Shown piece after piece: positions 5,183 through 54,006 of a stretch of DNA of 64,000 nucleotides. The translations under genes were made by a program, and so were the position numbers. Each line of letters begins with the position of its first letter. Positions within the stretch are counted from its first letter, which is position 1. The stretch is from a virus (Duplodnaviria > Caudoviricetes): IMG/VR virus record IMGVR_UViG_3300037247_001786, positions 320,001 through 384,000 of that record. The stretch is one strand, 5' to 3'. The notes below the pieces were generated by a model that was not told the origin of the DNA, made no database searches, and worked only from the letters and a program-made list of their open reading frames with translations.

Positions 5183-5490
5183 AACCAATTACGCCAGAAG
5201 AAATTACGACTACAAAAGAAGATCTTATTCCAGATGAAGTTATAGAATCATTTAACGAAATGATTGTTGCGAAATGGAATGGAACAGAATCTTTTTTCAG
5301 GCTAAAAGAGATAACTACTGTAGCCAAGAGAAAATTAAATCTGCGAAAACCAAAAAAAGAATTCGATAGTAAATGGTTAGATGTAGAAGACATTTATCGA
5401 AGATTAGGTTGGAACGTAGTATATATGTCTCCCGACTGGGGCGAAGATTATGATGCTTATTTTACATTTAGCAAAAAGGATAAAAAATAA
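5155..5490 (+). CDS. Hypothetical protein
   Basis: ORF in coupled gene run. Confidence 0.6.
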   Translation: MEKETRKMVKPITPEEITTTKEDLIPDEVIESFNEMIVAKWNGTESFFRLKEITTVAKRKLNLRKPKKEFDSKWLDVEDIYRRLGWNVVYMSPDWGEDYDAYFTFSKKDKK

Positions 5491-6167
5491 TGTTCCTGAT
5501 CGGCGACGTTCATGGCGAGTGGAAAACTTATAGACATATCATAGAAAAGATGCAACTTAAGGGTGGCAGAAAAGGTATGGACTGCTCTCTCGTTCTAGGC
5601 GATATGGGTATAGGTTTTGAAGATTTCTCAAATGATAGCATTAGAGATAGAAGTTTCATAAAAGATATCCCTCTTCAACATAAATTCATAGTGGGGAACC
5701 ACGACGATCGTGATTTAGCAAATACTCATCCTAATTGTTTGGGAGATTTTGGATATCATGAAAAGAGTGAACTGTTTTATGTGTCAGGTGGTTTTTCAAT
5801 TGATTATGAATGGAGAGAAAAAGATATTACTTGGTGGGAGAACGAAGAGCTTTCTGCCAAGCAAATAGATGAGGCTCTTGAGTTGTACTCGAAAGTTAAG
5901 CCAAAAATAATAGTGGCTCATGAGTGTCCTACAGAGGTGAAATATTTTGTTATTACTAATCCTCTAAAAAGAGAGATTAAATCAAGGACGGAGAAGATGC
6001 TTCAAAAGATGATAGAAATTCATCGTCCAGATTATTTTATTTTTGGGCATCATCACCAAAGAGAAGAAACTAATATAGATGGAACTCAATATATCTGTTT
6101 GGGAACTTTAAGTTACGATGGATACTCACAATGTATCTTTGAGATACCAGGAATAACATGGGAATAA
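5490..6167 (+). CDS. Metallophosphoesterase (calcineurin-like)
   Basis: GDVHG, GD, GNHD, H, GHHH motifs. Confidence 0.88.
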   Translation: MFLIGDVHGEWKTYRHIIEKMQLKGGRKGMDCSLVLGDMGIGFEDFSNDSIRDRSFIKDIPLQHKFIVGNHDDRDLANTHPNCLGDFGYHEKSELFYVSGGFSIDYEWREKDITWWENEELSAKQIDEALELYSKVKPKIIVAHECPTEVKYFVITNPLKREIKSRTEKMLQKMIEIHRPDYFIFGHHHQREETNIDGTQYICLGTLSYDGYSQCIFEIPGITWE

Positions 6168-6814
6168 AAAAGAAAATAATTTATTGCATAAGTGATATGC
6201 ATGGTTGCATCTCGGAACTAACTATTCCTGAGTGTGATATATTGCTGATAGCGGGAGATGTATCTCGTTATGGTAGGCAACTCTATAAAGACGCGAATTG
6301 GCTGGAAGACCACTTTAATAAGTGGCTTGGAGAGCAACCCGCTAAACATATTGTTATGACTCCTGGTAATCATGATATTATTTTTGAGAAGATGCCAGGA
6401 CTAATTCCTAAAATAAATTGTCATGTTCTTATAGATGAAATGATAGAGATTGAAGGGATAAAGATATATGGATCTCCTTGGACTATCGAATTTTATCATT
6501 GGGCTTTTAATCTGAAAGAAGAAAATCTTAAAATGGTTTGGGACCAGATACCAGATGATACCGATATATTGCTTGTTCATTCTCCTCCTTATTGCATCTT
6601 TGACATGACTAACTCACCAGGATATCCTAGAAAAAGAATAGGTAGTAAGAGTCTTAAAAAGAGGATAGAAGAGGTGCGTCCTAAATATGTTATCTTTGGG
6701 CATAATCATGGAGAAGTAGGCGTAAAGGAAGAAAAGGGCATTACTTATATTAATGCTTCTCTCCTTGACGACTTATATATGATGGTTAATTCTCCCATTT
6801 TAATAGAGATATAA
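6158..6814 (+). CDS. Metallophosphoesterase (calcineurin-like)
   Basis: SDMHG, AGD, PGNHD, HSPP, FGHNH motifs. Confidence 0.9.
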   Translation: MGIKKKIIYCISDMHGCISELTIPECDILLIAGDVSRYGRQLYKDANWLEDHFNKWLGEQPAKHIVMTPGNHDIIFEKMPGLIPKINCHVLIDEMIEIEGIKIYGSPWTIEFYHWAFNLKEENLKMVWDQIPDDTDILLVHSPPYCIFDMTNSPGYPRKRIGSKSLKKRIEEVRPKYVIFGHNHGEVGVKEEKGITYINASLLDDLYMMVNSPILIEI

Positions 6815-10421: not shown

Positions 10422-10724
10422 ATGACGAAGAAAAAGTTAAAAGCTATAACGGTACTCACTATTGCTGCAATTATATTGTTAGTAGTACTGGCCTCCACTG
10501 GAGCTATACTCATATTCTCTTTCCCCCTACTTATTCTATTGGGAACAATTCTCGTAGGCTGGGCCCTTAAGTCAGCGGTTGAATGGTTAATAAAACATAT
10601 CGACTATAAAAAAGTTGCGGACAAAACTGTTGAACATTCCAAAAAAGTAGCAGAGAAGATAAGGTTTAAAGAAGGTAAAAAAATAATTATAGAAAGCATA
10701 GACGAATTAAGGAATAAGAAATGA
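10422..10724 (+). CDS. Hypothetical membrane protein
   Basis: Long N-terminal hydrophobic segment. Confidence 0.55.
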   Translation: MTKKKLKAITVLTIAAIILLVVLASTGAILIFSFPLLILLGTILVGWALKSAVEWLIKHIDYKKVADKTVEHSKKVAEKIRFKEGKKIIIESIDELRNKK

Positions 10725-11356
10725 TGTACGAAGATAGAGTAATACAACTATGTTCTGATTATGCGGCAATAGCTCATATGAAACAGTTAAGAAAAGATGG
10801 AAAAACTCCCTATATATCTCACCCAGGCAGAGTATCTTGCTCTACTGCAACTATTGGTAAATTGGATTTTATAGGAGTCTGTGCATCTTGGCTACATGAC
10901 ACTCCCGAAGATTGTGCCGTTGGAAAACACGGCGATAAAGATTATCCATTTATAATCGAAAATCATACTGATAGATACAAAGATATAAGATTGTTCCTAT
11001 TGGATAACCCAGATATTGAAAAAACTGATGGGCAAAAGATTCTTCAATTGACGATGGAACTTTGTATGTCTCAAGATAAGTCCATTCCGAAGTGGATAAG
11101 AAAAGAACAATATATAGATAACATAGCTGGAGGTTCTGTTGATGCGGCAATTATTAAATATTGCGATAGAATCGATAATCTAACTACTTGTCATATCTTT
11201 TCAAAGAGTGGCTTTGCCTTCTATATAAAAGATACTCAAATGCTTCTGGATAAACTTTCTGGAAAAATTAAAGCGACACGCCCCCTCCTACACCTACACT
11301 TGGAACGCAAGTTAGAAGTAGTAACGAAGACATATGAAGAGATGTATAAAAAATAA
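10721..11356 (+). CDS. HD-domain protein, RelA/SpoT hydrolase (Mesh1/SAH)-like
   Basis: H..Q.RKDGKTPYISHP, WLHDTPED, IKYCDRIDNL. Confidence 0.8.
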   Translation: MMYEDRVIQLCSDYAAIAHMKQLRKDGKTPYISHPGRVSCSTATIGKLDFIGVCASWLHDTPEDCAVGKHGDKDYPFIIENHTDRYKDIRLFLLDNPDIEKTDGQKILQLTMELCMSQDKSIPKWIRKEQYIDNIAGGSVDAAIIKYCDRIDNLTTCHIFSKSGFAFYIKDTQMLLDKLSGKIKATRPLLHLHLERKLEVVTKTYEEMYKK

Positions 11357-11366
11357 TATTTTTATA

Positions 11367-11394
11367 TTGAAAGTGATTTTTAAACAGATATAAT
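11367..11394 (+). promoter_or_regulatory. Sigma70-like promoter upstream of membrane module
   Basis: TTGAAA GTGATTTT...TATAAT. Confidence 0.7.
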
Positions 11395-11451
11395 ACTGTT
11401 TTGATGTTAACCGTATATTTTTATTAAATGTAGTAGAAAGGAAAAACACAG

Positions 11452-12135
11452 ATGAAGAAATTTAAATCGATGTTAGTAGTAGGTATGTTGGCAGTAATGA
11501 GCTTTGCTTTTACCGCCGAAGATGTTCTCGCCAGACGTTCAGGAGGCGGCGGCTTTAAATCATCACCAAGGTCGGCTCCAAGGTCGGCTCCAAGGGTTCG
11601 TACAGCACCAAAGGTTCGTAGGGCACCAAAGGCTACGCCAGCCAAGAAGCGAACAACTCAAAAGAGAACAGCTACGGCTCCTAAAAGAACAGCCGCACAG
11701 CAAAAATCTTTTGAGACAGCAAAAAAGAATGGGACTTCTTTTAAAACAAAGTCCGCGGCTTCGACAGCTTTCAAGCAGAAACATTATGCAAAGTATCCTG
11801 CAAAGTATGCATCGAAACCGGCTACACGACCCGCTCATGTTCCACAGTCAACAAGCGTTGGGGGAGTAAACTATAATGTCTCCTATAATGCTGGCTATGG
11901 AGGTTATGGGTATATGGGAGCAGGAGGCAGATGGATGATGTATGATGCGATGACTGATGTTATTATGTTAAATATGCTGATGTCTCGAAATCATTACATC
12001 GTAGATACCGTCGCTCCAGCACCTGTTGTTCGAGTTCGTAGAGCTAACACAGGCAGAACCATATTTATCGTACTCGGATCTATCGTTGCTGTTATTGTTA
12101 TAGGCAGTATCGTTATCGGTCAATCCCGTCAGTAA
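11452..12135 (+). CDS. Exported, membrane-anchored basic low-complexity protein
   Basis: Signal peptide (..EDVLA|RRSGGGGF), PRSA tandem repeats, YGGYGY tract, C-terminal TM. Confidence 0.7.
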   Translation: MKKFKSMLVVGMLAVMSFAFTAEDVLARRSGGGGFKSSPRSAPRSAPRVRTAPKVRRAPKATPAKKRTTQKRTATAPKRTAAQQKSFETAKKNGTSFKTKSAASTAFKQKHYAKYPAKYASKPATRPAHVPQSTSVGGVNYNVSYNAGYGGYGYMGAGGRWMMYDAMTDVIMLNMLMSRNHYIVDTVAPAPVVRVRRANTGRTIFIVLGSIVAVIVIGSIVIGQSRQ

Positions 12136-12154
12136 AAGTTTTAACCCTCCTTGT

Positions 12155-12193
12155 ATAGTAAAGAGGTGGTCGTTCAGATTGCCTCTTTACTAT
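12155..12193 (+). terminator. 13-bp stem-loop, terminator or processing site
   Basis: ATAGTAAAGAGGT / GCCTCTTTACTAT; weak U-tract. Confidence 0.45.
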
Positions 12194-12222
12194 CTATGTA
12201 TAATTATTAAGGCACATGTTTA

Positions 12223-12897
12223 ATGGAAAAAACAAGTAAAAAATATTGGGATAGTATTAAGGTCGGTAGCATCGTCCAACTGGACGACCAACAAACTCTT
12301 GAATTTCTTATAGAGAAAGGGTTTGAGGGTATAGAACATGGAGCAGATTTTGAAGTAAAACGAATTAAAGATATCTCAGAACAAGATAATCTCGCTATAT
12401 GGAGAATTATTTATATTGAATTCAAAGAGATACTATGGTATCTAGTTATCAAAATGATTGACGGAGAGAATCAATTAAGGATATACTATCAACCAGATGA
12501 TTTCGATTGCGGTAATAGAGAAGATATGATTAATAATTATTCTGAATATCTTTTCAAACATATTGAGGATATGGACAATTGCAATTTAAATGATCTAGAA
12601 TTTGCTGATTCCATAATGGATCATGAATTCGAATATACTTCTGAGGGAGTCTTCTACGGAGCTTCTGTCGAAGATGGTAAAGAGGATTTCGCAACTGTTG
12701 TTGAATACGCTACAGATACAGAATGCGAGAATCCTTATCTCTTGGTTTTGGAATTATGTAATGTCGAAACGATTGAACAATACGATGAAGATGACGATGT
12801 CTGCGGTTCAGAGACCGACATCGATTTTAATAACGGTTTTATAATGTTACTACAAGGTTGCGACGTAAACATAAATGATATAGAAGTTTTAAATTAA
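12223..12897 (+). CDS. Acidic hypothetical protein, possibly DUF4178/YjfK-like
   Basis: IKVGSIVQL start, very acidic, next to PspA; family assignment is inference. Confidence 0.45.
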   Translation: MEKTSKKYWDSIKVGSIVQLDDQQTLEFLIEKGFEGIEHGADFEVKRIKDISEQDNLAIWRIIYIEFKEILWYLVIKMIDGENQLRIYYQPDDFDCGNREDMINNYSEYLFKHIEDMDNCNLNDLEFADSIMDHEFEYTSEGVFYGASVEDGKEDFATVVEYATDTECENPYLLVLELCNVETIEQYDEDDDVCGSETDIDFNNGFIMLLQGCDVNINDIEVLN

Positions 12898-12909
12898 GAG
12901 GCAATTAGC

Positions 12910-13119
12910 ATGACTGGTAAAAGACAAGTACAATATGGAATAACGGCTTTAGCATTTTTTTTCAATACTCTTTTAGGTATTGCGGTAATGATTAAGGGTT
13001 GGGGCGTTCAACCAGAAAGTTACGGATGGATATGGGGAGGTGCTTTTACTACTGCTCTTGTTGTGATGTTTACGACTGACTCGATAAAAAAATTATGCGG
13101 AGTTAAAGACGATGAATAA
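12910..13119 (+). CDS. Small 2-TM membrane protein
   Basis: Two hydrophobic helices; KGWG motif shared with next ORF. Confidence 0.6.
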   Translation: MTGKRQVQYGITALAFFFNTLLGIAVMIKGWGVQPESYGWIWGGAFTTALVVMFTTDSIKKLCGVKDDE

Positions 13120-13345
13120 AGAATATTATTCTGGAACTGAAAGTGAGACAGCGAAAGTAATTTTGGGAGTTGTTCTGTTTCTTTTTTCGATTGTATTTAT
13201 CGTTGTTATGCATTTCGTTATTTTTTACAAGGGGTGGGGTCTATCAGTTGTAAGTTGGCCATGGTTGATATTTTTATGGATAATGGCAGGAATAGTGAAT
13301 ATGGTTAAAGACTGGGCTCATAAAGCAGTAAAAAAAATATTATAA
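13112..13345 (+). CDS. Small 2-TM membrane protein
   Basis: Two hydrophobic helices; KGWG..SWPW. Confidence 0.6.
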   Translation: MNKEYYSGTESETAKVILGVVLFLFSIVFIVVMHFVIFYKGWGLSVVSWPWLIFLWIMAGIVNMVKDWAHKAVKKIL

Positions 13346-13364
13346 ATTTAAAAGGAAAAAAGTT

Positions 13365-14033
13365 ATGAAGATTTTTAGCACAATCAAAAACATCGTTAAG
13401 GGTAAAGCGGCAGAGGCAGATGAGTCTCTCAAAAAATCACAAGCGGTCACTCTTGGTAAACAAGCGATTAACGAGTCGGAGACAAAGATAGATGAACATA
13501 GAAAGCGTATCGGCGATTTCTCCGCTAAGATCAAAGTTCAAGAGAAAAATCTTGGGAATGCAGAAGCAGATGTAAAGAAGTGGACAAACATAGCAACTGC
13601 ACAAGCAAAGAACAATAGCGAGTCAGGAGCGAGAACCGCTCTTACTGAAAAGAATAAAGCTGCGTCAAAGGTAACTAGCTTGAAATCGGAGATAGCTAAG
13701 AATACGACTGTTCTCAATGCCGAAAAGACAAGTCTTCAAAAGTTGATAGATAAGGTTGACCAGGCTAAAAACAACTTTGATAATCTCTCCATTCGCAAAG
13801 AAGGAGCAGAGATGAGAAAAAATCAAACTGGCATCGGCGAAGATGACAGTTGTTTCGACGCCTTGGATGATTTGAAAGATCAAGTTGAAGAGTCGGAGGC
13901 TCAAGCGGAAGCCTATGAAGAAATGTCCGAGGTAGGTAACGAGGCTGCTCAGTTGGAAGCAGAGTACGATTCCGGCAATACCGGCGTAGAAGATGAATTG
14001 ACGAAGTTAATGAATAAAAATAACAAAAAGTAA
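13365..14033 (+). CDS. PspA/IM30 family protein
   Basis: 222 aa all-helical coiled coil; MKIFSTIKNIVKGKA start, A..AL.EK, C-terminal VEDELTKLM. Confidence 0.8.
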   Translation: MKIFSTIKNIVKGKAAEADESLKKSQAVTLGKQAINESETKIDEHRKRIGDFSAKIKVQEKNLGNAEADVKKWTNIATAQAKNNSESGARTALTEKNKAASKVTSLKSEIAKNTTVLNAEKTSLQKLIDKVDQAKNNFDNLSIRKEGAEMRKNQTGIGEDDSCFDALDDLKDQVEESEAQAEAYEEMSEVGNEAAQLEAEYDSGNTGVEDELTKLMNKNNKK

Positions 14034-14057
14034 TTAAATATTTTGTAGGATGATATT

Positions 14058-14201
14058 ATGGAATTTGGTCAATGTGACGATTGCGGGGGAACGATGGTAG
14101 GCGATGGTTATTCTCAAGTATTACATTGTGAGTTTGTTACAGATGACCTGTCGGATCGTGAAGCTGATTCCGGACCCATATTTTGTGGATTTAAAGATTA
14201 A
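14058..14201 (+). CDS. Small Cys-containing protein (47 aa)
   Basis: Manual ORF MEFGQCDDCGGTMVGDGY...HCE...FCGFKD with AGGA RBS. Confidence 0.5.
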   Translation: MEFGQCDDCGGTMVGDGYSQVLHCEFVTDDLSDREADSGPIFCGFKD

Positions 14202-14222
14202 TTTATTTTGTAGGAGAATATT

Positions 14223-14489
14223 ATGCATATTCCAGATGACGGAACACTCGGAGGAAAAGTCCTCTTCGGAGCTATTGTTGCAATAGTTATACTTTGTATT
14301 GATGTCTCAATAACAAATGATATTTATGATTATTGTAAAACTTTTGAGGCTTTTGCGAATGCCCCAGGAATGATACACTTCTTTTCATGGACAGGAATGT
14401 TCTTGGCAGTAGTTAGCGTTGTAGGGGTAATCGTCCAATTAATTTGGGCACTTCTTCTAATAATATTTGCTGCCATCTGCGGCGAATAG
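14223..14489 (+). CDS. Small membrane protein
   Basis: AGGAG RBS, two hydrophobic segments. Confidence 0.6.
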   Translation: MHIPDDGTLGGKVLFGAIVAIVILCIDVSITNDIYDYCKTFEAFANAPGMIHFFSWTGMFLAVVSVVGVIVQLIWALLLIIFAAICGE

Positions 14490-14506
14490 AAAGATATGGT
14501 GATTCT

Positions 14507-15589
14507 ATGTTTAAAGAAATATTAATGAAGAAAAGAATTCTAATATTGACGTTTTTAGTTATTGCAGTCTCAACAACTTTTGGTGAGCCTACAGATACTC
14601 TTCAAATAAAGGTGAAATCTTTTCCTCCTTGCGTCATTATCGAAGACGATGGCACCGTAACAGGCTATGATATTGAAATATGGGAAGCCATCTGTCATGA
14701 GAATAACTGGCAACCCGAATACACGGTCGCCTCCTCTCATAATAATATCTTAAAAGAGTTGGGCGAGAAGAAATTCGATGTTGGTATCGCTGGTTTTACA
14801 AAGACAGAAAGCAGAGAAGAATTAATAGATTTCTCTGATCACTATTTAGATTCTGGTTTAAGAATTCTTACGCTGAAATCTGAACCTGGCATAATAGATA
14901 AGATAGTATCTTTTTGGAACAATATCGATGATACTTTAGCTTTCTATGGCATCTTTTTGATTCTTTTTGCTCATATCGTTTGGGCATTAGAAAGAGATAA
15001 TGACCCCACAAATAATGATGGTAGTTTTGATGATAGTTACTTCGTAGGTATTGCCCAAGCATTATATTATTGCATCGTCACAGCTTCTACAGTCGGATTC
15101 GGAGACTTCACCTGTAAGAAAGCAAGAGGTAAAATATTTACTGTAGTCCTTATCTTTTCAGGTCTCATAGGTTGGAGTAATTTGACGGCTGTTTTATCAT
15201 CGTCTTATACTATTGAGAACCTTTCAGCGATACAGTCCGTTGAAGACTTAAAGGGCAAAACTATCTTGACTCAAGATGGTCCGTCTCTAAAAGTTCTTCA
15301 AGGCATTGGGGCTAATATCAAGTTAGTACCGACAATAGACCAAGCTGTTGATTGGCTTATGTTAGAGAGAGGCGATGCGGTAGTATACGACTCTCCTGTT
15401 ATTTTAGAATATGCAAAGAAGTACCCAGACAAAGTAGAGGTAGTTGGTTACCTGTTTGATAAGCAGTATTATGGTTTCGCTCTTCAAGAGGGAAGTCCGT
15501 TAAGACAAGACGTAAATAAAGCTCTTTTGAAGATTAGAGAGAGTGGTAAATATGATAGTATCCATTTGAAATGGTTTAAGAAGGAGTAG
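14507..15589 (+). CDS. GluR0-like ionotropic receptor: split family-3 solute-binding domain plus K+ channel pore
   Basis: Signal peptide; S1 (FPP..GYDIEIW..DVGIAGFT.T..RE..IDFS..Y); M1; pore helix and filter TASTVGFGD; M2; S2 (SVEDLKGK..DAVVYD..YYGFA..GSPLR..VNKALL.IRESGKY..I..KWF). Start moved from 14444 to ATG 14507. Confidence 0.9.
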   Translation: MFKEILMKKRILILTFLVIAVSTTFGEPTDTLQIKVKSFPPCVIIEDDGTVTGYDIEIWEAICHENNWQPEYTVASSHNNILKELGEKKFDVGIAGFTKTESREELIDFSDHYLDSGLRILTLKSEPGIIDKIVSFWNNIDDTLAFYGIFLILFAHIVWALERDNDPTNNDGSFDDSYFVGIAQALYYCIVTASTVGFGDFTCKKARGKIFTVVLIFSGLIGWSNLTAVLSSSYTIENLSAIQSVEDLKGKTILTQDGPSLKVLQGIGANIKLVPTIDQAVDWLMLERGDAVVYDSPVILEYAKKYPDKVEVVGYLFDKQYYGFALQEGSPLRQDVNKALLKIRESGKYDSIHLKWFKKE

Positions 15590-15592
15590 GTA

Positions 15593-15970
15593 ATGTTAAA
15601 TTTTGATATAGTTCTCGCAAAAGATGTTAAAACAATTGGCTTTCTGGTTTCATATGGTTATCATTACGTTCACTATGTTCCTCTCAGTAAATTGTATTTA
15701 TCGCCTACGTCTGTGATGTTCAAAGATGAGTATCATATTCAAGAAAAGACTTGGTGTGAGAAAAAATATATTTACTGGGACAGACCTTATGACGAAACAA
15801 AGGTTGAAGTTTTTACAAGTTTAACCATTGAGGAAGTCTCTGAAGTCCCAGAGTGGTTAAATAAAACGCCAGAAAAAGCAGAAAAGGAAATAGCGGATTA
15901 TAAAGAAAAACTGCGTAAAAAAACTTGGTTCTATAAAATGTGTCATTGTTTAGGTAAGAAGGAAGAATAA
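15593..15970 (+). CDS. Hypothetical protein
   Basis: AGGAG RBS. Confidence 0.55.
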   Translation: MLNFDIVLAKDVKTIGFLVSYGYHYVHYVPLSKLYLSPTSVMFKDEYHIQEKTWCEKKYIYWDRPYDETKVEVFTSLTIEEVSEVPEWLNKTPEKAEKEIADYKEKLRKKTWFYKMCHCLGKKEE

Positions 15971-15971
15971 T

Positions 15972-16184
15972 ATGTTAGCATGGTTATGTTTGTTAGGTTG
16001 GTTGTTACTGTTCACAGTAGTAACGATAGTATTAGGAGCTTGTCAAGACTGGAGTAACGGTTGGACATCGGCATGGACATCCCTGCCAAGTAAGCCTACT
16101 AATTGGATAGCAACAAATATATTTATTGTTGCGATATGGATCATATCAATAATCCTCAAAGTTGCCATTTGGGGTTGGTTGTAA
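15972..16184 (+). CDS. Small membrane protein
   Basis: Two TM segments. Confidence 0.55.
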   Translation: MLAWLCLLGWLLLFTVVTIVLGACQDWSNGWTSAWTSLPSKPTNWIATNIFIVAIWIISIILKVAIWGWL

Positions 16185-16231
16185 AAGAAGAAAAATAACT
16201 GAAAATTTTTTAACAAAAAGGAAAAAGTAAA

Positions 16232-16492
16232 ATGTACAATTTCGACAATGCAGGCATCAATAAGTTATTAATAATTTTAGCGGCGGTAGTTGTTCTTACC
16301 CTCTTACTTTCAGAAGTAGTTGGTTTTATAATTGTGGTATCTACTCTATGGGCACTCAGCGGTCTGGCTGGTTGGGGTATAGGCAGAATGCAAAACAAAA
16401 TAGATCCCAGTGAAAATCTCTCCAAGGATAGCGTGTTCTATGATCATATCGCTAGGGGACCTATCGCTATATTTCAATATTTGCGAGAATAA
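16232..16492 (+). CDS. Small membrane protein
   Basis: Long hydrophobic segment. Confidence 0.55.
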   Translation: MYNFDNAGINKLLIILAAVVVLTLLLSEVVGFIIVVSTLWALSGLAGWGIGRMQNKIDPSENLSKDSVFYDHIARGPIAIFQYLRE

Positions 16493-16495
16493 CAC

Positions 16496-16523
16496 TTGAA
16501 AGTGATTTTTTAATTGGTACAAT
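16496..16523 (+). promoter_or_regulatory. Sigma70-like promoter
   Basis: TTGAAA GTGATTTT...TACAAT. Confidence 0.65.
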
Positions 16524-16551
16524 TAGTAAAGTTAAAGCAAGAAAGGGCTTT

Positions 16552-16857
16552 ATGTTCGATAAAAAAATCATAAGAGTATATTACTTAACAAGGGACGAAC
16601 AAGGTAGAGTTGAGCTTTGGGAGTCAAAACCCGTTTTTGTTCATGCCGAAGATGGAAATGGTTTTTTTGTGGATGTAAGAAATCCAGAAAATCAGCTATC
16701 TCTCGATGATCCATTTAATAGAGTTCTCTCTCATAGAGTTCTTGTTTTGAATAGTACTTGTCAAACTGTTATAGTAAATATGACAAAAAAAGGCAGTACT
16801 ATATTGCTCGGCGAAACCTTTTCTTATAAAGAAAGTAAAGAATTATGCAAGATATAG
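16552..16857 (+). CDS. Hypothetical protein
   Basis: First ORF after promoter. Confidence 0.55.
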   Translation: MFDKKIIRVYYLTRDEQGRVELWESKPVFVHAEDGNGFFVDVRNPENQLSLDDPFNRVLSHRVLVLNSTCQTVIVNMTKKGSTILLGETFSYKESKELCKI

Positions 16858-17645
16858 ATACAAAATATGCTAGTAAAGTGGATAAAGTTTTAAAGTCTTT
16901 AATAGTAGTTACGTCACTCGGAGCAGTTCTTTTCTATTTCTATTGTACTTATCAAACCAAATATGCAAAAATAGAAGTTGATGCTCTTGCTGTCGTTACT
17001 GAGGATATAGGCAGCCTCGTCAGGTCTCCATGGGATCAAAAGAAATATATTGACAAATATATCAAAGAAGGCTCTCCCCTATCTACATACAATGAGCCAT
17101 TTGGTTATTCGTATAGTTATTATAAATATGAAGATGATAAAATTATAGTATTGACTAGCGAGAGAGACAGAGCAAGTTGGTCTTTTGCAAGATATATCAG
17201 AGAAGGGCAACAAACTTATATCTATTTAAAAATGGATGAACCTATTTTGGTGTATCATAGTATGTTACCCGATAATTTTATAGATCCAACTCCCAGACGA
17301 TTAGAGAGAAATAGAGAGAACCTAATTTGTCATGAAGGTCAATGGATCGAGTATTTAGACGTTATAGCGGAAAAAAGGAAAAAGGATGTTCGCTCAAAAG
17401 CGAAAGCTGATGCTAAGAGGCTTAAGGCAGAATGGAGAGCCTCTCAAAAGCTTTCAAAAAAGCTTTCTAGGGATATGTCTGAAGAAGATAAGAAGAAACA
17501 AAAAGCCATCGAAGAGAAAGAACGCAAAGAGAAGATGACGGAAGAACAGAAAGAATCTGAACGTTTAGAAAAAGACACCACCTTGATAGATGATAGTCTT
17601 TTATTTCTCGCGGAGAAGAATAATGACGCAAAAATTGATAATTAA
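16845..17645 (+). CDS. Membrane-anchored protein with charged coiled-coil tail
   Basis: N-terminal TM, K/E-rich C-terminus. Confidence 0.6.
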   Translation: MQDIDTKYASKVDKVLKSLIVVTSLGAVLFYFYCTYQTKYAKIEVDALAVVTEDIGSLVRSPWDQKKYIDKYIKEGSPLSTYNEPFGYSYSYYKYEDDKIIVLTSERDRASWSFARYIREGQQTYIYLKMDEPILVYHSMLPDNFIDPTPRRLERNRENLICHEGQWIEYLDVIAEKRKKDVRSKAKADAKRLKAEWRASQKLSKKLSRDMSEEDKKKQKAIEEKERKEKMTEEQKESERLEKDTTLIDDSLLFLAEKNNDAKIDN

Positions 17646-21252: not shown

Positions 21253-22134
21253 ATGGAAGATCGTTTTATCGGCAAGCGTATTGGAAGAGTTGTAGTATTA
21301 AAGCAGATTGGTGTCAAAAAGAAAAGAAAAGCTTACGAATGCCTATGTTCTTGTGGGAAAAAAGATATATTAAGTTCTGATCAATTATCAAGAAATAAGA
21401 ATCCTGGGTGTAAGAAATGTAGCCGTAGAATTAAATTTACAGATTTAAAAGGGCAAAGATTTAACAAATTAGTAGTTATAAAAGAAGATGTAAGTTATAA
21501 AGGTAACGGGGTAAAATGGCATTGCCTCTGTGACTGTGGGAATAAGACAGTCGTTTTGTCGGGGTCATTAAAAAACGGACATACAAAATCTTGCAGTTGC
21601 TTACAAAAAGAAAAAGTCAGTAAAATAAAAGTTAATTTAACAGGACAGAAATTTGGGAAATTAACAGTTATAAAAAAAGAGCCCGAGAACGCTAAGTGGC
21701 TGTGCAAGTGTGAATGTGGCAATGAAGTTATTACTCGCTCAACGTCTTTGTACTCTGGGGCGACGAAGTCTTGCGGTTGTATTCGTATAGAAATGCACAC
21801 CGGCCCAAATAGTAGATTTTGGAAAGGTGGTATAACTTTAATTAATAGGGGTATTAAAAAATCTTCTAAATATTGGAAGTGGGTAAGATATGTAAAAAAA
21901 AGAGATCAATATACTTGCCAATGTTGTTCTTTGCAAGCAATTAGTAAGAAATTACATGCTCATCATATAAGAAATTTTGCTGATAATATTGATGTAGCTT
22001 TTGATACTAATAATGGGATTACTCTATGTGAGGGATGCCATAAAAAATTTCATGCTGTTTATGGAAAAATTAAAACAGATAATAAACAATTAACGGAATT
22101 TATTAAAAATGAAAAAATCAAAAATAAAACTTGA
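21253..22134 (+). mobile_element. Free-standing HNH homing endonuclease with three Cys-rich repeats
   Basis: 3x G..FGKL.V...W.C.C.CG repeats; C-terminal YTCQCC..LHAHH..NGITLCEGCHKKFH; overlaps start of next gene. Confidence 0.85.
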
Positions 22135-23113
22135 AGATATTGGTTTCTATACCTTATATGAAGAGAGGTGTAAATATGCTAATGCGACAAGCCCTATGAT
22201 TAGAGCGGAACTTATTATAACTAGTTTTTGTAATTTTAATTGTCCCTACTGCCGAGGTATGAGAGAAGAATGTAGAGGCGACATGTCATTATTCCAAGCT
22301 CTTCGAACCATTTATTTTTGGACAGATGATAACCTCAAAAACATTCGCTTCTCAGGAGGAGAGCCAACTCTTCATAAAGGTTTAATGGATATGGTTCGCT
22401 ATGCTAAAGAAAGAGGAGTAGAAAGAATTGCTCTCTCCACAAATGGTAGTGCGAAAACAGAATTATATGATGAACTTGTCGAAGCTGGCGTTAACGATTT
22501 CTCGATTTCTTTAGATGCCTGCTGCTCAACTTATGCAGATAAAATGGCTGGCGTTGACGGTCAGTTCCAAAAAATTATTGATAATATTAAGTATCTTTCA
22601 GAGAAGACTTATGTAACTGTCGGCGTTGTGTTTACCGAAGAAACTGTTGATAGTATTGTAGAGGTTATACAATTGGCTAATGACTTGGGCGTATCTGATA
22701 TTCGTATCATCTCTGCTGCTCAAGAGAGTGAAACATATTTCAAATTTTCAAAGTCAGTTTCTGTCTTCGGCACAGGTTTCAGAAAGAGATATCCTATATT
22801 AGCGTATAGGTTAGAAAATATCGAAGAAAATGTTCCTGTCAGAGGTTTGATAGAGAGCGATTCTCATAGATGCGGTTTGATGACAGATGACAGTATGGTT
22901 GCTGGTAAGTGGCATTATCCTTGCATCATACATTTCAGAGAGGGAGGAGACCCTATCGGAGAAGTTGGTCCTAATATGAGAAAAGAGAGAATAGATTGGT
23001 TAAAGACACATGATACCCACTCTGATCCTATCTGCAAAAAAAATTGTTTGGATGTATGCGTAGCATATAATAACAGATTCGCAAAATATTCTGGCATGAG
23101 AAAGAATATTTAA
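22109..23113 (+). CDS. Radical SAM protein
   Basis: CNFNCPYC, GGEPTLH, STNG, ISLD; extra C-terminal Cys. Confidence 0.9.
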   Translation: MKKSKIKLEDIGFYTLYEERCKYANATSPMIRAELIITSFCNFNCPYCRGMREECRGDMSLFQALRTIYFWTDDNLKNIRFSGGEPTLHKGLMDMVRYAKERGVERIALSTNGSAKTELYDELVEAGVNDFSISLDACCSTYADKMAGVDGQFQKIIDNIKYLSEKTYVTVGVVFTEETVDSIVEVIQLANDLGVSDIRIISAAQESETYFKFSKSVSVFGTGFRKRYPILAYRLENIEENVPVRGLIESDSHRCGLMTDDSMVAGKWHYPCIIHFREGGDPIGEVGPNMRKERIDWLKTHDTHSDPICKKNCLDVCVAYNNRFAKYSGMRKNI

Positions 23114-46145: not shown

Positions 46146-47122
46146 TGCTATTTAAAGTATGTATGAGTATAGCCACTATACTATTCTTAATAGTTATAGT
46201 AGTTAATATAGTCTCGTCAATCAAAGAAAAAAAGAAATATGAATATCTCAATGAGAGAGATGATGGATTCACAGGAACAGCGAAAAGATATAGAAAAAAA
46301 CACCCTATTAAAAAATAAGGATAAATATGATAGAAGTAATTAATGAACCAGATGATTGCCCATTCCAGAGAACAGATTATGACGGATTCCCAGATGGATG
46401 TAAGTATGATGAAACTAAATGCTATAATCATAACGAATTCCCAGAGGATTGCCCACTGAATGATGGCGATATTACAGTTACAAAAGGATAAATATGAAAT
46501 GTAAAAAACATCCAAGATATAAAGGGAAAAATAAAGAACAAGCAAAAAATTGCCCAGCCTGTATCTGTATATATATGAATAGACTATTTAAAGAAAAAAG
46601 GGAAAGACAATGAAATGCAAAAAACACCCAAACTATAAAGGAAATGGAAAACCAAGAAATTGTGCAACCTGTCTATGCATACACCTGGAAAAACAACTTA
46701 AAAAAAGTAGAGAAAATAGAGAATAGCTCTTTTTCCCGCGAAAAATAATAAATATAAGGATCAATACAAATGACAATAAACAATATAAACAGAGAAACAG
46801 AAATGGTATATGATAACCTAAAAAGAATAACCAGCAATATACCATCAAAAGATACACTAATAGAAGCAACTGCTAAAATAATGCAAGCTAAAATTATAGC
46901 TGAAGCAATAAGTAACATAAGGAACATAACATGAGGAAAACAAAAGTTATTAAAGCCTCTCCAGCAGCACTCGAACAAAGGATAGATACTTGGATAAAAT
47001 GTAACCCAAGAGCAGAAATAATTAGAACAAGTGCTGCAGCCATAAATGAATACAATGTTCTATATGTGATAATATATGAAGAAAAACCAATATAACACCG
47101 ATACCTCAAATAATTTGCCAGA

Positions 47123-47452
47123 GTGGTAAAAAATGGAATTTATAAGAATATGAAATATAATACTTGTCAAAATCATAAAACTCCTGACCAAATAGAAAAA
47201 GAAGATCATCGCTCTATATATCAAAAAAGATGCCTACTGTCTATAGGAGATAAAATAAAGGCTACTACCGAATTTAGAAAAGTAATGATTGGCTCATATA
47301 GACCAAAAGAACCTGTATTCGAGGGTGGCAAAATCATAGAGTTTAAAGATCCATACGACTCAGATGGAAAAACAGCACACTCATTGGCAAATGTAGAAAT
47401 GCCTTGCGGTTGTACACATCGTATCAATACAGCTTGGCTTGTCAAAATCTAA
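47123..47452 (+). CDS. Hypothetical protein
   Basis: Likely start 47151; CGCTH motif. Confidence 0.45.
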   Translation: MVKNGIYKNMKYNTCQNHKTPDQIEKEDHRSIYQKRCLLSIGDKIKATTEFRKVMIGSYRPKEPVFEGGKIIEFKDPYDSDGKTAHSLANVEMPCGCTHRINTAWLVKI

Positions 47453-48234
47453 CCCTTTTTCGCGAGAAATAAAAATCCCCATTAATAACCCAAAAATCCA
47501 TATAAACTACAATATACACAAGATTAATATATAATGACTACAATACTTAATATAATAGCAACTATAATATATGGACTAATCATATTTAGCGAACACATAT
47601 ATATAAAGATAACACAAAGATAACAATATGAAGAATAAATTCACATGAGGACACGCTAACGACGAATCCAACATAAGACTAAATGGAGAACACTATCTCG
47701 AAATATCTAACTATGGACATACAAAAGAAGTAATAGATAGAGTAGAACATATCACCGAACTACTAAACCAAACAACAACTGCTGATGTAATACCAGAGCC
47801 TCCACAACCTCCACCAAAGAGAGTAATCATAGAGGGAGTAAAGATAATACAAGAATAACAAACAAAGCACAGATCAAACCACAGGGCTTATACCCCCTTA
47901 TCAGAATACCAGTTAATAGCTCAAAAATCAACTATGGCAATCAATAGGGAAAATAATGGAACTAAGTGGTACAGAGTGGTGTAAAAGGGTGAAAAACCCC
48001 ATTATTACCCAAAAACCCAATTAGAGGTCAAAAACCCAATAAATATTGCTCACAAACCTATAACCCAAATATAATAAGAAAAATGCTTATTATTGATACA
48101 CAAGCACCAAATAGGAATATCTTTAAATAATTCTCATCGACCGATCTCGATAAACCGACTCTATTTACCCTTAATATAATAATAAGAATTATTTTTATTC
48201 CTTATATAAAAGTAATGATACACCTTATATCAAG

Positions 48235-48452
48235 TACTATGGCACTCTTTGTCATATTTGCCAGAGTGACAAAAAAACTGTTGTCTGGTATAAGTTGTTT
48301 TCAGTTGCACCAAGTTATTACCACTCTGGCAGTTATTTGATACAATTATTTGCCAGAGTGTGAAAAAACACTTCTTATATATGTAGCAGTCATATATTTT
48401 GTTAAAAACTGTCACTCTGGCACTGTATGGGTCATATTTATTTGCCAGAGTG
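48235..48452. repeat. Iteron-like array of TGCCAGAGTG boxes; probable replication origin
   Basis: + copies at 48259, 48351, 48443 (92-bp period); - copies at 48322, 48413; degenerate - copy at 48235; lies at strand-composition switch. Confidence 0.75.
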
Positions 48453-48482
48453 GTAAAAAGTGCTTTTTATAAGAAATAATAC

Positions 48483-48511
48483 TTGAAAGTGATTTATCAT
48501 TATGATATAAT
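48483..48511 (+). promoter_or_regulatory. Sigma70-like promoter
   Basis: TTGAAA-17-TATAAT, extended -10 TG. Confidence 0.8.
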
Positions 48512-48551
48512 CACGTTCTGTATTTGAGTTTATTTTTTGGAGAGAAAAGTT

Positions 48552-49232
48552 ATGAGTGACGTAGTAAGAGATTATTCAGATGTCAAGGACACAGTAGAGT
48601 TATCTATTGGTGATCGCACCAAGATAACTAATCGCAGAGGAAACGTTATCACTCCTCGCAAATACCATATGGCAGATGATCAGATAGAGGAAGCACGTAA
48701 TCGCTGGAGAGAGTTGATAAAAGATGTTCCTGCTTCTATTCGCCATAAGGCCAGGCGATCGTTCTTTAATCCATTTAGGGTTAATGGTTCTTATTTTGGT
48801 CAAGTTCAAGCACTGTATCTACTTGGTGCTAATGAGTGGCATACTTACTCATCTGTTCGTGGTAAGATGCAGGAGGACATGAGTACCCGTAAGAGTCCTC
48901 TCAACACTTTGAATAGTTGGGAGAAATTTGCTACTAGGAGTGCTCGTGAGGGAGCTACTTCTACTAAAGATTTAATGGGTAGAATAGTTAGTAACTTCCG
49001 TACTCTTCAGCGTTTAGGTGGCACTAACCCTTATGGTTATAAGCTTAAGCAGTTGTTATCGAGTGTTGATGCTCGTCGTAGAGTGGATAGTATTTGGGAG
49101 TTTAGGTTAGATACTACTTGGACTGATATGGACTTGGTTAAGCCTTTTTATGATATATCTGCTTATGTTGTTCCTAAAGGTAAGAAGGTTGATACTGTAG
49201 TAGTTTCTACAGATGTTCCAGTTGTTGACTGA
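48552..49232 (+). CDS. Hypothetical basic protein adjacent to putative origin
   Basis: ATG with GGAGAG RBS; R/K-rich. Confidence 0.65.
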   Translation: MSDVVRDYSDVKDTVELSIGDRTKITNRRGNVITPRKYHMADDQIEEARNRWRELIKDVPASIRHKARRSFFNPFRVNGSYFGQVQALYLLGANEWHTYSSVRGKMQEDMSTRKSPLNTLNSWEKFATRSAREGATSTKDLMGRIVSNFRTLQRLGGTNPYGYKLKQLLSSVDARRRVDSIWEFRLDTTWTDMDLVKPFYDISAYVVPKGKKVDTVVVSTDVPVVD

Positions 49233-49631
49233 TTGGGAGAGTATGCACTGAATTGGGTATACCCTTTTTCTTTTCCGCGAAAAAATGGGTTTTAAGGGTA
49301 AAAACAATGATTAAGTACTATTTAAAAAGATATGGTTATGCGGCATGGTTAGGTCTTGCACTGGGTATGTTCGCCAATATAGGTATATTTGATATTGATT
49401 TCTGGCTTATTCTTGTGCCTTTTTACTTCTTACTAGGTTGGAGAGATCAATGATTGAAGCACTGATTAAGATATTATGTATATGGTGTATCCTTGGTTTT
49501 ATAGCCCCTATGCTCACTCCTGACCCTGAAACAAAGAAGGGGGCTATTATCCAGTTAATAACTTTTGGTCCCATTATGTGGGCTTGTGTAGGCGTAAGTA
49601 CGTTAATTGATATTTTTTCGCGGATAAAAAA

Positions 49632-49943
49632 ATGGCTAAATGGTTAAAAATTCCCAAGACATATGGTGGACTTCAGGATAATATTGCCTATGAGAAGGCA
49701 TTATCTACTCCCACTAAAGAAGAGAAGATGATAAGTCTATTTAATTTTAGCACCAAAATCTTTAAGTTCTTATCTTGCCTATGGTTAGCACTGATTATCT
49801 TAGGTTTTAGTTTAATGTCTCTTGCACCGAAAGTAGCTGGAGTTATAGGAGCTACAGGTAGTTTCCTCTTTGTAGTTAATTTTATTAGTTATATTTGTTT
49901 AATAATGATGATATTGTATATGAAAGGTCTAAGTAATGAGTAA
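49632..49943 (+). CDS. Membrane protein
   Basis: Two C-terminal TM. Confidence 0.5.
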   Translation: MAKWLKIPKTYGGLQDNIAYEKALSTPTKEEKMISLFNFSTKIFKFLSCLWLALIILGFSLMSLAPKVAGVIGATGSFLFVVNFISYICLIMMILYMKGLSNE

Positions 49944-50157
49944 CATAATTGAATGGATTAAAGACAAAGATAATGAGTTAGTGGCTACTATTGTCCTCTT
50001 TGTAGTTGGGATATTAATAGTACTGTTTGGAGTTATATCTATTGCACTGACAAGTTCAGGGATATTTATTGTCTTTGGATCCTTGTTAATGCTAATGGGT
50101 GTTATAATTGTAATATTCGGGTTCGTTACTCTGATGGAGTTCCTAGGCGGTCTATAG
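49936..50157 (+). CDS. Membrane protein
   Basis: Two TM. Confidence 0.5.
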   Translation: MSNIIEWIKDKDNELVATIVLFVVGILIVLFGVISIALTSSGIFIVFGSLLMLMGVIIVIFGFVTLMEFLGGL

Positions 50158-50169
50158 CACTGAATAGGA

Positions 50170-50271
50170 AACCACTATATGTAGCGGTGCAGACTACCCC
50201 CAATACCCACTACATATAGTACATACAACATATGGTGGGTATGCAATGGGTAATACCCACTACATATAGTA
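50170..50271. repeat. Four-copy alternating-orientation CCCACTACATATAGT-type repeat
   Basis: 20-bp AATACCCACTACATATAGTA at 50202 and 50252; partial inverted copies at ~50170 and ~50229. Confidence 0.7.
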
Positions 50272-50287
50272 TATTGAAAGGTAAAAA

Positions 50288-50513
50288 GATGCAAAAAATT
50301 GCAAAATGGTTAAGAGATGAAGTTATCTATAAGTTAGTAGCTAGTGTTTTCATGTTTTTGGGTGGAATTTCTACTCTATTTATAGCTATTCACTTTTGTA
50401 ATAATTCTAAAATTGGTATGGGAGTAGTTCTCCTTATATTAGGTTTAGTTTTTAGTGTTCTTGGGATTATTCCTTTGATATCTAAGTGGTGTAATTGGCA
50501 GGATATAGAATAA
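50288..50513 (+). CDS. Membrane protein
   Basis: ATG after AAAGG; two TM. Confidence 0.45.
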
Positions 50514-50882
50514 ATGAGTGATTCTATTCAGGATAGTTATCAAGATGGTCATGAATCTTATTATGACGATATATTAAGATATAAGAATCCTTATAGTGGA
50601 TTGGAGTCTGAGTCTTGGTTTCGTGGTTGGGATGAAGCTGAAGAGTATCATCGGTTATTCACTGATAATCAGACCTTCAGGGATCAGATTAAAGAGTTAA
50701 AAGAAGAGATAAAAGAGTTAGAAGATAGTGTTAGTGGGTTCAAGAAAAGTATGATCCAGATTAATACAAATATATTATCTTCTATAGATCACATAAGAAA
50801 GAGTAAGTTTCTTTATTTTCACCGCGAAAAATTGGTATCTAAGCTTAAAAATATAAATTTGCCAGAGTGTGAAAAAAGCTAA
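50514..50882 (+). CDS. Hypothetical protein with coiled coil
   Basis: Y.DG...NPY.......W.RGW pattern. Confidence 0.55.
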   Translation: MSDSIQDSYQDGHESYYDDILRYKNPYSGLESESWFRGWDEAEEYHRLFTDNQTFRDQIKELKEEIKELEDSVSGFKKSMIQINTNILSSIDHIRKSKFLYFHREKLVSKLKNINLPECEKS

Positions 50883-50891
50883 TTTATAGAG

Positions 50892-51731
50892 TTGTATAAT
50901 AAATATGCGGAGAGAGAAATGTACCAATCGTTAAATAGTATAAAATATGTAGAAGTATCCCGTTTATCGACTGGTATACCTGAATTAGATTGGATATATG
51001 GAGGAGATGGTACTAATGTAGGTCTCCCTCAAGGTAAGATAAGTTTATGGAGTGGTCCATCAGGTTGTGGTAAGAGTAGGTCATTAATTACTCTTTCTAA
51101 GAAAATGAGTTCCGCTGGTCATAACGTTCTTTACTTTCAGAATGAAGTTAATTTGAGTGATTTTCGTTCTTGGGCAGGCAATGAACCCTTGGCTCCGAAT
51201 CTTTATGCATCGGATACAACTACTTTGGCTGGACAAGTAGATGAGATAACGAAGAGCAAAGCAAGAGTTGCTATCATTGATAGTATCGGATTGATTAAGG
51301 AATTCAAGACAGGACATGAGACTAATGTAAGAAACATTTATGCTCATTACCGTGCATTAACTAAAAAGACTGGTGTTCATGTTATCTTTGTTTGTCAGTT
51401 GAATAGTAATTATAAGATAAAAGGTTCATCTGAAATCCTGTATTTAGCTGATATTTCAGTTGATTTAGACAGGCATGTAGTTAATAAGAAGATAATTAAG
51501 AACCACTTTGTGATAGGCATCAATGGTCGTAATGGTGGTAAACATCGTTATGGCGAGATGGGCGATGACATAACTACTCTTTGGAGGTATTCTCCTGGTG
51601 GAGCTATATGTATCTCTAATAATAGGGGATCCTCTGATATAGTTCCTTATGGTCATATTGATAAAAAGGTAGTTGATACTGTTTCTGGATCTACTTTCTT
51701 TGTGCCGAAACTAAATTTTAAATTTGCTTGA
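50892..51731 (+). CDS. RadA/Sms-like RecA-fold ATPase lacking Zn finger and Lon-like domain
   Basis: STGIPELDWIYGG, GPSGCGKS, IIDSI, G.....YLAD, KHRYG (cf. KNRFG). Confidence 0.8.
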   Translation: MYNKYAEREMYQSLNSIKYVEVSRLSTGIPELDWIYGGDGTNVGLPQGKISLWSGPSGCGKSRSLITLSKKMSSAGHNVLYFQNEVNLSDFRSWAGNEPLAPNLYASDTTTLAGQVDEITKSKARVAIIDSIGLIKEFKTGHETNVRNIYAHYRALTKKTGVHVIFVCQLNSNYKIKGSSEILYLADISVDLDRHVVNKKIIKNHFVIGINGRNGGKHRYGEMGDDITTLWRYSPGGAICISNNRGSSDIVPYGHIDKKVVDTVSGSTFFVPKLNFKFA

Positions 51732-51894
51732 AAAGTGAAATTAGATATATTATAGTGTTGTTATGTTACGAAGGGGTGGTACCCTAGAGAGATGTAAAAA
51801 CTAATTTGTGATGAACCCATCCCTTAGCGGGGAATGGCTGAAAGTCACCGTTAAACTCGCATGACCAAATGCTCGTAATATTTTAAAAAAAGCT

Positions 51895-51922
51895 TTGAAA
51901 GTGATTTATATTATGCTATAAT
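51895..51922 (+). promoter_or_regulatory. Sigma70-like promoter upstream of the RNA gene region
   Basis: TTGAAA GTGATTT...TGC TATAAT. Confidence 0.75.
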
Positions 51923-52611: not shown

Positions 52612-52685
52612 TTATTAGTTGGTGTCGTCTAAATCTGGCAGGTAACACAAGGGCATGCTCTGAATAACTTGTCCAACTGATTAGA

Positions 52686-53766: not shown

Positions 53767-53804
53767 TTTGCCAGAGTAGAAAAAAATCTCTATTATGGCA
53801 ATAC

Positions 53805-53993: not shown

Positions 53994-54006
53994 TATGTAT
54001 ATTATT

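Follow-up and report, generated by a model that had tools for sequence, protein, structure and literature searches.

GluR0 is a glutamate-gated, K+-selective channel (Chen et al. 1999, as cited in PMC12332018), and the Synechocystis protein complements E. coli deficient in K+ uptake and dampens changes in cell volume after a K+ shock (PMC13099474). The prokaryotic glutamate receptors that carry a K+ filter ('Group 1') were recorded from bacteria only (Ger et al. 2010, PMC2950845). Here we describe a GluR0-type channel gene, P0001, encoded by a tailed huge phage. It lies in a stretch of 64,000 nucleotides (hereafter the window, whose coordinates are used throughout) that covers bases 320001-384000 of the IMG/VR virus record IMGVR_UViG_3300037247_001786, a genome of 460,978 bp. 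Like GluR0 of Synechocystis PCC 6803 (slr1257) and of Nostoc punctiforme, the protein combines a signal peptide, the order S1-M1-P-M2-S2 and a K+ filter; it shares with them the absence of a third transmembrane (TM) segment and the Arg/Thr/Asp triad that binds the amino acid. Unlike cellular GluR0, it is phage-encoded, carries a GFG instead of a GYG filter and has a turret insertion, DPTNNDGSFDD. The genomic setting differs as well: the phage channel is linked to pspA in all related loci except L035, whereas the cellular GluR0 homologues that we examined are not.

Two further systems invite comparison. Chlorovirus Kcv and the phage 'potassium channel domain' proteins found in BFVD and PHROGs are, like P0001, virus-encoded two-TM K+ pores of the tetrameric type. 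Known viral ion channels are minimal pores, and those of the Kcv type are bare structures of ~80-130 amino acids (aa) without a ligand-binding domain, whereas the pore of P0001 sits inside a complete clamshell; the fusion of a viral pore with a ligand-binding domain has so far been artificial (GluATCV*, PMC6385376). The second system is the cellular pspA operon of the yjfJ type, in which a K+ channel sensing an intracellular ligand accompanies DUF350, DUF1190 and DUF2491 (Ravi et al. 2024, PMC11237479). The phage locus resembles the E. coli yjfIJKLMC-type operon in joining a PspA-family gene, a YjfK-like fold, small membrane proteins and a K+ channel, and related phage loci match the yjfJ operon in placing a CesT/Tir-like gene beside pspA. 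The two differ in the direction of sensing, which in the phage channel would be outward, through the clamshell of a solute-binding protein (SBP), and in the yjfJ-operon channel is inward.

Phage-borne pspA has itself been surveyed recently. A preprint by Yuan & Chen (bioRxiv 10.64898/2026.10.24.761521, October 2026) counts pspA in 184 huge phages and 667 IMG/VR phages, and summarises PspA as forming ESCRT-III-like assemblies that stabilise stressed membranes. It probably lists the same gene as ours beside huge-phage pspA, under the name 'transporter substrate-binding protein'; for this neighbour it mentions no channel, potassium or glutamate, it does not read the gene as a K+ channel of the GluR0 or ionotropic glutamate receptor (iGluR) type, and it describes neither the YjfK-like nor the P0266-like partner introduced below. 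Full-text literature searches returned no paper describing a phage-encoded GluR0/iGluR-type channel. GluR0-type channels, viral K+ pores and phage pspA are thus each known, and a phage receptor-channel inside a phage-shock-protein (PSP)-type module is new.

The open reading frame (ORF) of P0001 occupies 14507-15589 on the + strand, as do its neighbours between 11452 and 16184, and encodes 360 aa from an ATG start, with a TAA-type stop included. It is present exactly as the original prediction had it, with both of the motifs named there: the filter T195-V-G-F-G-D200 (15089-15106) and SNLTAVLSS at residues 224-232. From the N-terminus, the protein comprises a signal peptide (residues 1-26, 14507-14584), the S1 lobe (residues ~30-128, 14594-14890), M1 (residues ~143-161, 14933-14989), the pore helix (178-193) with the K+ selectivity filter (15038-15106, matched by Ion_trans_2), the M2 inner helix (residues 209-233, 15131-15205), in which SNLTAVLSS falls at the predicted bundle crossing, and the S2 lobe (residues ~237-358, 15215-15580). 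The N-terminal stretch MKKRILILTFLVIAVSTTFG, followed by E, has the basic n-region and hydrophobic core of a signal peptide when read from the sequence, and an equivalent N-terminus is found in all full-length homologues. Alternative starts exist at an in-frame TTG upstream (14444) and at a second ATG (14525, MKKRIL...); the homologues start with MKK, matching the ATG at 14525, and a GGTGA lies 4 nt 5' of the ATG at 14507.

Domain searches recovered the same layout. In Pfam, SBP_bac_3 spans residues 37-358 (E 1.8e-28) and Ion_trans_2 is nested within it at residues 151-231 (E 3.7e-12), splitting the clamshell into S1 and S2; Lig_chan (5.6e-5) and Lig_chan-Glu_bd (2e-6) both fell under the Pfam cut-offs, so that of the three models proposed for this check SBP_bac_3 and Ion_trans_2 were significant and Lig_chan was not. 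NCBIfam gave GlnH/ArtJ-type binding-protein halves flanking a K+-channel segment. No other gene in the 460,978-bp genome carries Ion_trans_2. The turret insertion between M1 and P is mainly confined to the phage clade.

Structural comparison pointed to the same family. By sequence, the best match in the PDB is 2pyy, the ligand-binding core of Nostoc GluR0 (E 1.8e-29, both lobes aligned), followed by glutamine-binding proteins and then by dozens of AMPA-receptor chains. An AlphaFold2 (AF2) model built from 31 homologues reached a mean predicted local distance difference test (pLDDT) of 89.1 and placed helices at residues 129-162 (M1), 178-193 (pore helix) and 206-235 (M2). The last S2 helix covers residues 348-357 of 360 according to DSSP, and since the chain ends two residues past this helix, P0001 has no third TM segment. 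When the model was searched against the PDB with Foldseek, the top 50 matches were all AMPA-receptor chains spanning the ligand-binding domain (LBD) and transmembrane domain (TMD), with a best E of 5.4e-24 and a query-normalised template-modelling score of up to 0.70; the fold is that of the AMPA LBD-TMD minus M4. With the split SBP_bac_3, the 2pyy match, the AMPA-type fold and the lack of any further TM segment, the complete GluR0 topology that had been proposed for the gene is confirmed.

Residues expected to matter for ligand binding and conduction are conserved. In an alignment with E. coli GlnBP, T98 and R103 correspond to T70 and R75, and D295 to D157 (the Asp of LHDTP); in the GlnBP family these positions contact the alpha-carboxylate and alpha-amino groups of the ligand. 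Among the 31 homologues, R103 and D295 never vary and at least 90% keep T98; T195, G199 and D200 of the filter are likewise invariant. The filter pattern TVG[FY]GD is kept in most relatives, most of which read TVGYGD, and the M2 stretch SNLTAVLSS appears in relatives as NFTA.LSS.

Tetrameric assembly around one pore is predicted. A pore-only tetramer (residues 128-242, four copies) scored 0.77 for the interaction prediction score from aligned errors (ipSAE), against 0.00 for the best of three controls; modelling the tetramer was a check that the original prediction had proposed. Three runs shared at least 88% of contacts with a partner pLDDT of at least 77, and the modelled inter-subunit contacts involve residues 194-200 (the filter) and 223-239 (the M2 bundle). 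In calibration, the mark used for this score was reached by 21 of 30 true homomers and by none of 23 monomers, in predictions of two copies, not four.

The channel gene does not stand alone as a moron but closes a conserved module whose other genes encode a membrane protein, a YjfK-like protein and PspA/IM30, a context that the original prediction had missed. Module gene 1, P0266 (11452-12135, 227 aa), belongs to no recognised family; its product starts with a signal peptide or N-terminal anchor, continues through a basic S/R/P-rich linker into a conserved domain of ~100 aa and ends in a C-terminal TM anchor, and an alignment of 15 phage homologues gives the domain the pattern KKNGT..AFK..RP.YIP..NV.YN..GGYGYM. 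It has no Pfam match, its comparison with E. coli YjfM/DUF1190 was not significant, and a search for a cellular counterpart of the family found none. Module gene 2, P0267 (12223-12897, 224 aa), encodes an acidic, beta-rich, cytoplasmic protein with a predicted YjfK-like DUF2491/DUF4178 fold: the AF2 model (pLDDT 91.7) has E. coli YjfK as its best Swiss-Prot fold match (E 1.9e-5, template-modelling score 0.50), its fold matches in AFDB clusters are DUF4178/DUF2491, and Atlas search features agree. Two small predicted membrane proteins follow, of 69 aa (12910-13119) and 77 aa (13112-13345); they are paralogues, the hidden Markov model (HMM) of each matching the other's homologues in the metagenome contigs L001-L003, and neither matches any family, including DUF350. 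Next comes P0268 (13365-14033, 222 aa), a PspA/IM30 protein matching PF04012 (E 5.4e-16; score 59.3 bits, cut-off 33.9; positions 2-218 of 220 matched) and the sole pspA product of the genome. Because its BLASTP match to E. coli YjfJ is weak (22% identity, E 0.014), we do not place it in the YjfJ subfamily.

This arrangement recurs among huge phages. The original prediction had called a ligand-gated receptor channel unusual in a bacteriophage and had suggested a survey of phage databases. For cultured and deposited phages, as collected in INPHARED and BFVD, the description is fair: a megablast search of INPHARED with 10 kb around the gene returned nothing, tblastn of P0001 gave only partial, SBP-only matches, and no phage entry of either collection matched P0001 over its full length, the sole full-length viral fold match in BFVD being E3T502 of CroV, a giant eukaryotic virus. 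The gene is not unique, however, as IMG/VR shows, where a single-protein scan found nothing and an alignment-based scan was needed to bring out full-length homologues in at least 13 further contigs, most of 92-548 kb; several metagenome contigs carry them too. In total, at least pspA adjoins the channel gene in ~20 phage or phage-like contigs, with channels 28-81% identical. The metagenome contigs L001-L003, whose channels are 50-75% identical, keep the same gene order over more than 10 kb, all on one strand. Iterated HMMs placed P0266-like, P0267-like and PspA genes before the channel gene in 11 of these 13 IMG/VR loci; of the exceptions, L035 carries the P0266-like gene alone, and L029 only a piece of pspA where its contig ends. 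In other phage-like contigs, pspA stands directly upstream of the channel homologues P0133, P0024 and P0121, and diverged relatives of the module occur in marine metagenomes from another study.

Two of these loci strengthen the likeness to the yjfJ operon. A CesT_Tir_1 protein is encoded between the YjfK-like gene and pspA at L030:6030-6428 (PF22550, E 3.9e-15) and, as a weak match, at L025:6773-7222 (E 0.055); beside phage pspA it recreates the CesT/Tir-PspA dyad of cellular yjfJ operons. As a separate observation, L030, L033 and L036 hold a 267-aa gene of no recognised family between pspA and the channel.

The phages that share the module range widely in relatedness. The portal of the 461-kb phage shares 70% identity with that of a complete 548-kb record, 60% with that of a 186-kb fragment and 28-29% with those of the 424-kb and 119-kb records, and no portal homologue was detectable in two complete records that bear the module (395 and 264 kb); the module is therefore carried by close, distant and apparently unrelated huge phages. 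A FastTree phylogeny of 154 homologues recovered a clade of 24 (support 98) that unites the group of the window with that of L025-L027, and every member of this clade with a known context is a phage. The backbone of the tree is too weakly supported for us to claim a number of acquisitions. In six phage-phage comparisons among the closer pairs, the ratio of nonsynonymous to synonymous substitution rates (dN/dS) of the channel was 0.12-0.17, and by this sequence measure the channel is under purifying selection in phages.

Taking gene, context and conservation together, we consider it reasonably probable that P0001 is a functional GluR0-type channel and the last gene of a phage PSP-like module that supports membrane and ion homeostasis of the infected cell, and huge phages that bear the module probably exert control over ion balance and membrane state in the infected cell. 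It is the pspA/YjfK-like context that points to homeostasis rather than to a stand-alone signalling device. K+ conduction, gating by amino acids, co-operation with PspA and a benefit to the phage are what we infer from this. Four subunits would form one inverted two-TM K+ pore, with a secreted two-lobe amino-acid clamshell outside. In the order of the genes, the module would supply an anchored envelope protein, the YjfK-like protein, the small membrane proteins (CesT/Tir-like in relatives), PspA/IM30 and the channel, and these would be expressed and inserted into the host inner membrane during a long infection cycle. PspA would stabilise and reseal the stressed inner membrane, while binding of an amino acid in the periplasm would open the channel to K+, which would follow its electrochemical gradient. 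For a well-energised cell surrounded by low-K+ seawater this would mean K+ uptake and a partial clamp of the membrane potential toward the K+ equilibrium potential, and the outcome would be that turgor, counter-ion supply and proton-motive force are kept in a range that supports replication.

The module looks like a reduced yjfJ-type phage-shock operon in which a GluR0-type channel has replaced the internally gated one. A more far-reaching form of the idea, which we put forward only tentatively, is that PspA and an externally gated K+ channel act as one unit, a 'membrane-state control' module of huge phages that is vertically maintained in several lineages and turns amino acids outside the cell, for example from lysing neighbours, into K+ flux and membrane remodelling. 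If the channel works as proposed, a phage receptor-channel would make the membrane of the infected cell respond to a chemical signal from outside; were PspA and channel to act as a unit, the phage protein would stand as the first receptor-channel of natural viral origin, and as a case of electrical sensing of the surroundings by a phage. The pairing with PspA offers a testable handle on how huge phages with long cycles keep the host envelope energised and intact, and bears on the purpose of phage-borne pspA genes.

Several observations weigh against this account. K+ conduction, ligand identity and gating of P0001 are predictions, the filter reads TVGFGD and not the commoner TVGYGD, and the success of the tetramer model may echo the predictor's memory of solved K+ channels. 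The likeness to the yjfJ operon is incomplete. The window, like the rest of its clade, has no CesT/Tir (YjfI-like) gene, and two small TM ORFs stand between 12897 and 13365 instead; DUF350 and DUF1190 (PF03994, PF03738) have no match in the genome, and a GSP-synthase/peptide-spermidine ligase was not detected. For P0267, Pfam gave no DUF2491 match and hhalign a probability below 1% against YjfK, so that its link with YjfK is only structural, at the level of the predicted fold. With CesT/Tir, DUF350, DUF1190 and the ligase not found, the parallel rests on PspA, the YjfK-like fold and the K+ channel. The channel gene was found in no run recorded as RNA; one sediment run labelled RNA-Seq gave short contigs over 15329-15754, at the 3' end of the gene, and these are flagged as probably DNA, a result that counts neither way. 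Finally, the relatives at L034:8013-9074 and L038:7914-8915 retain both SBP lobes, two TM segments and the module, and have lost the P-loop, pore helix and TVGYGD filter. The module can thus persist without a canonical pore, and this, more than any other observation, hints that the protein may do something besides conducting ions.

Among the alternatives, the original prediction had suggested that the channel couples the extracellular amino-acid level to membrane potential, in effect as a weapon or timer, for superinfection exclusion, for lysis timing or to counter depolarising abortive infection. The shift in potential could keep competing phages from injecting their DNA, or could set the moment of holin triggering. 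The protein is indeed built to link ion flux to a ligand outside the cell, amino acids from lysed neighbours would be a sensible cue, and a role of this kind would also fit a gene that is conserved and under purifying selection in phages. We nevertheless regard it as unlikely. A K+ channel can bring the membrane potential no further than the equilibrium potential of K+, and full depolarisation is therefore beyond its reach. In the module we recognised no gene for a holin, an endolysin or a known exclusion function, and the constant partner, PspA, protects membranes, which fits maintenance better than deliberate collapse. Exclusion, lysis timing and anti-defence are accordingly less favoured than membrane and ion homeostasis, given the constancy of the PspA partnership and the absence of lysis genes from the module.

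The two pore-less relatives suggest a different alternative, in which P0001 is mainly a membrane-anchored ligand sensor that reports periplasmic amino acids to PspA or other module proteins, or else a tethered binding protein, with conduction secondary or absent. L034 and L038 speak for it, with SBP lobes, two TM segments and the whole module in place and the P-loop and filter gone, and the existing labels lean the same way, the source annotations of JGI naming amino-acid transport substrate-binding proteins and the preprint a 'transporter substrate-binding protein'. Yet the K+ signature, the pore helix and the inner helix are intact in P0001 and most of its relatives, Ion_trans_2 matches P0001 significantly, and the predicted tetramer is confident and channel-like. 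An ABC permease or ATPase with which a binding protein could work was found neither among the ten ORFs scanned at 10721-17645 nor among the called genes of related contigs. We judge such a mainly sensory or binding role to be improbable. The variation does have a use: because these channels are small (360 aa), lack auxiliary domains and come in natural GFG, GYG and pore-less variants, they could serve as compact models of iGluR gating.

That the gene is a recently captured host passenger, a moron without a role in infection, seems very unlikely to us. GluR0-type proteins are indeed widespread in bacteria (426 representative clusters at E<1e-30), and huge phages carry many host-like genes. Phage contigs that share no more than 28-40% identity in the channel, and anything from 70% to no detectable identity in the portal, nonetheless keep the gene order, the dN/dS values given above speak for selection, and the closest homologue in a cellular context, P0125, is only 39% identical. 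The profile search of genome contigs was pattern-limited and returned few full-length cellular homologues; in the four cellular contexts that we inspected (P0125, P0022, a Bryobacterales chromosome and a Saccharibacteria contig) no module gene or pspA lay nearby. The last of these, L055 (CAZRBB010000001.1, 240 kb, binned as Candidatus Saccharibacteria), encodes a GluR0-type protein 36% identical to P0001, with a TVGYGD filter and with no module gene within 6 kb; genomes of this lineage are ~1 Mb in size. Among the best matches of the exhaustive representative search, P0122 is identical to the phage protein of L029 and P0123 to that of L028, and P0121 is the one noted above behind pspA in a phage-like contig. 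A corollary of the tentative 'membrane-state control' reading would be that a sizeable share of the nearest 'bacterial' GluR0 sequences in databases are phage genes, and many GluR0-like entries labelled as bacterial 'transporter substrate-binding proteins' should be treated with the warning that they are phage-encoded channels.

The replicon is a phage, as the original prediction had assumed, and specifically a tailed huge phage of 461 kb. The IMG/VR record is a single contig with terminal repeats and a CheckV completeness of 100, assembled from a marine sediment metagenome. It encodes a portal protein (phrog_16240, E 1.1e-49) followed by a gene with a head-maturation-protease-like domain, and also a tape-measure-like protein, a ribonucleotide reductase and a tRNA nucleotidyltransferase. 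Coding is dense under the standard code 11, with mostly unannotatable ORFs, and past 40 kb nearly every 20-kb bin has most of its ORFs of 100 aa or more on the + strand. The Pfam models Terminase_6N, Terminase_6C and Phage_capsid (HK97) have zero matches in the genome, a failure that is common in very divergent huge phages, so that phage status rests on the portal, protease and tape-measure PHROG matches. The 'direct terminal repeat' (DTR) measures only 53 bp, and 57-bp tandem repeats occur within the first ~170 bp of the genome; instead of being a physical DTR, the 53 bp may mark where the assembly of a circular or permuted genome overlaps itself. These last two points are what could be said for a cellular or non-viral element misfiled as a virus and carrying an ordinary bacterial GluR0, an explanation to which we give almost no weight in view of the portal with its adjoining protease-like domain, the tape-measure-like protein, the strand bias and unannotatable ORFs, an array of 29 tRNA genes, the CheckV completeness on a 461-kb single contig, and relatives that are likewise IMG/VR huge-phage records.

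Two observations concern the portal itself. In the relative G004, the portal homologue (G004:C1:68046-72032) is one 1331-aa frame matched in three separated pieces, which would fit the insertion of an intein, a homing-endonuclease domain or the like. The portal ORF of the 461-kb genome has a weak HNH-like match at residues 626-720.

The remaining features around the module are minor. A sigma-70-like promoter candidate, TTGAAA-16-TATAAT (11 of 12 consensus positions, a consensus match only), lies at 11367-11394 on the + strand, in the gap before module gene 1; the next comparable intergenic site on this strand is at 16496-16523. Between pspA and the channel gene, a possible Cys-rich mini-ORF of 47 aa (MEFGQCDDCGG..., 14059-14202, read from the sequence) is followed by an 88-aa predicted membrane protein (14223-14489) that had no family match and no homologue in the other loci searched; both have the same leader, TTTTGTAGGA..ATATT-ATG. 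Directly 3' of the channel, a 125-aa ORF (15593-15970) is kept in the three closest phage contigs, L001-L003, at 25-35% identity, with no Pfam or PHROG match. A 70-aa predicted membrane ORF (15972-16184) may close the putative operon, on weak evidence, with a terminator-like hairpin located at 16154-16174.

Just upstream of the module, an HD-domain phosphohydrolase-like gene (10721-11356, phrog_990, E 3e-17) is kept in L001, as are two adjacent ORFs at 5490-6814 whose L001 counterparts have Metallophos matches. A 334-aa ORF at 22109-23113 is 85% identical to a radical-SAM gene of L002, its neighbours being typically 35-55% identical. The 29 tRNA genes of the window form an array at 53482-63659 on the + strand, two members of which (54206-54296 and 62465-62555) are odd ARAGORN calls with a two-base anticodon. 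The decamer TTGCCAGAGT occurs in 13 exact + strand copies, at 19990 and within 47115-63676, and allowing at most one mismatch on both strands gives 17 matches against 2.5 expected; the copies lie mostly between tRNA genes and small ORFs.

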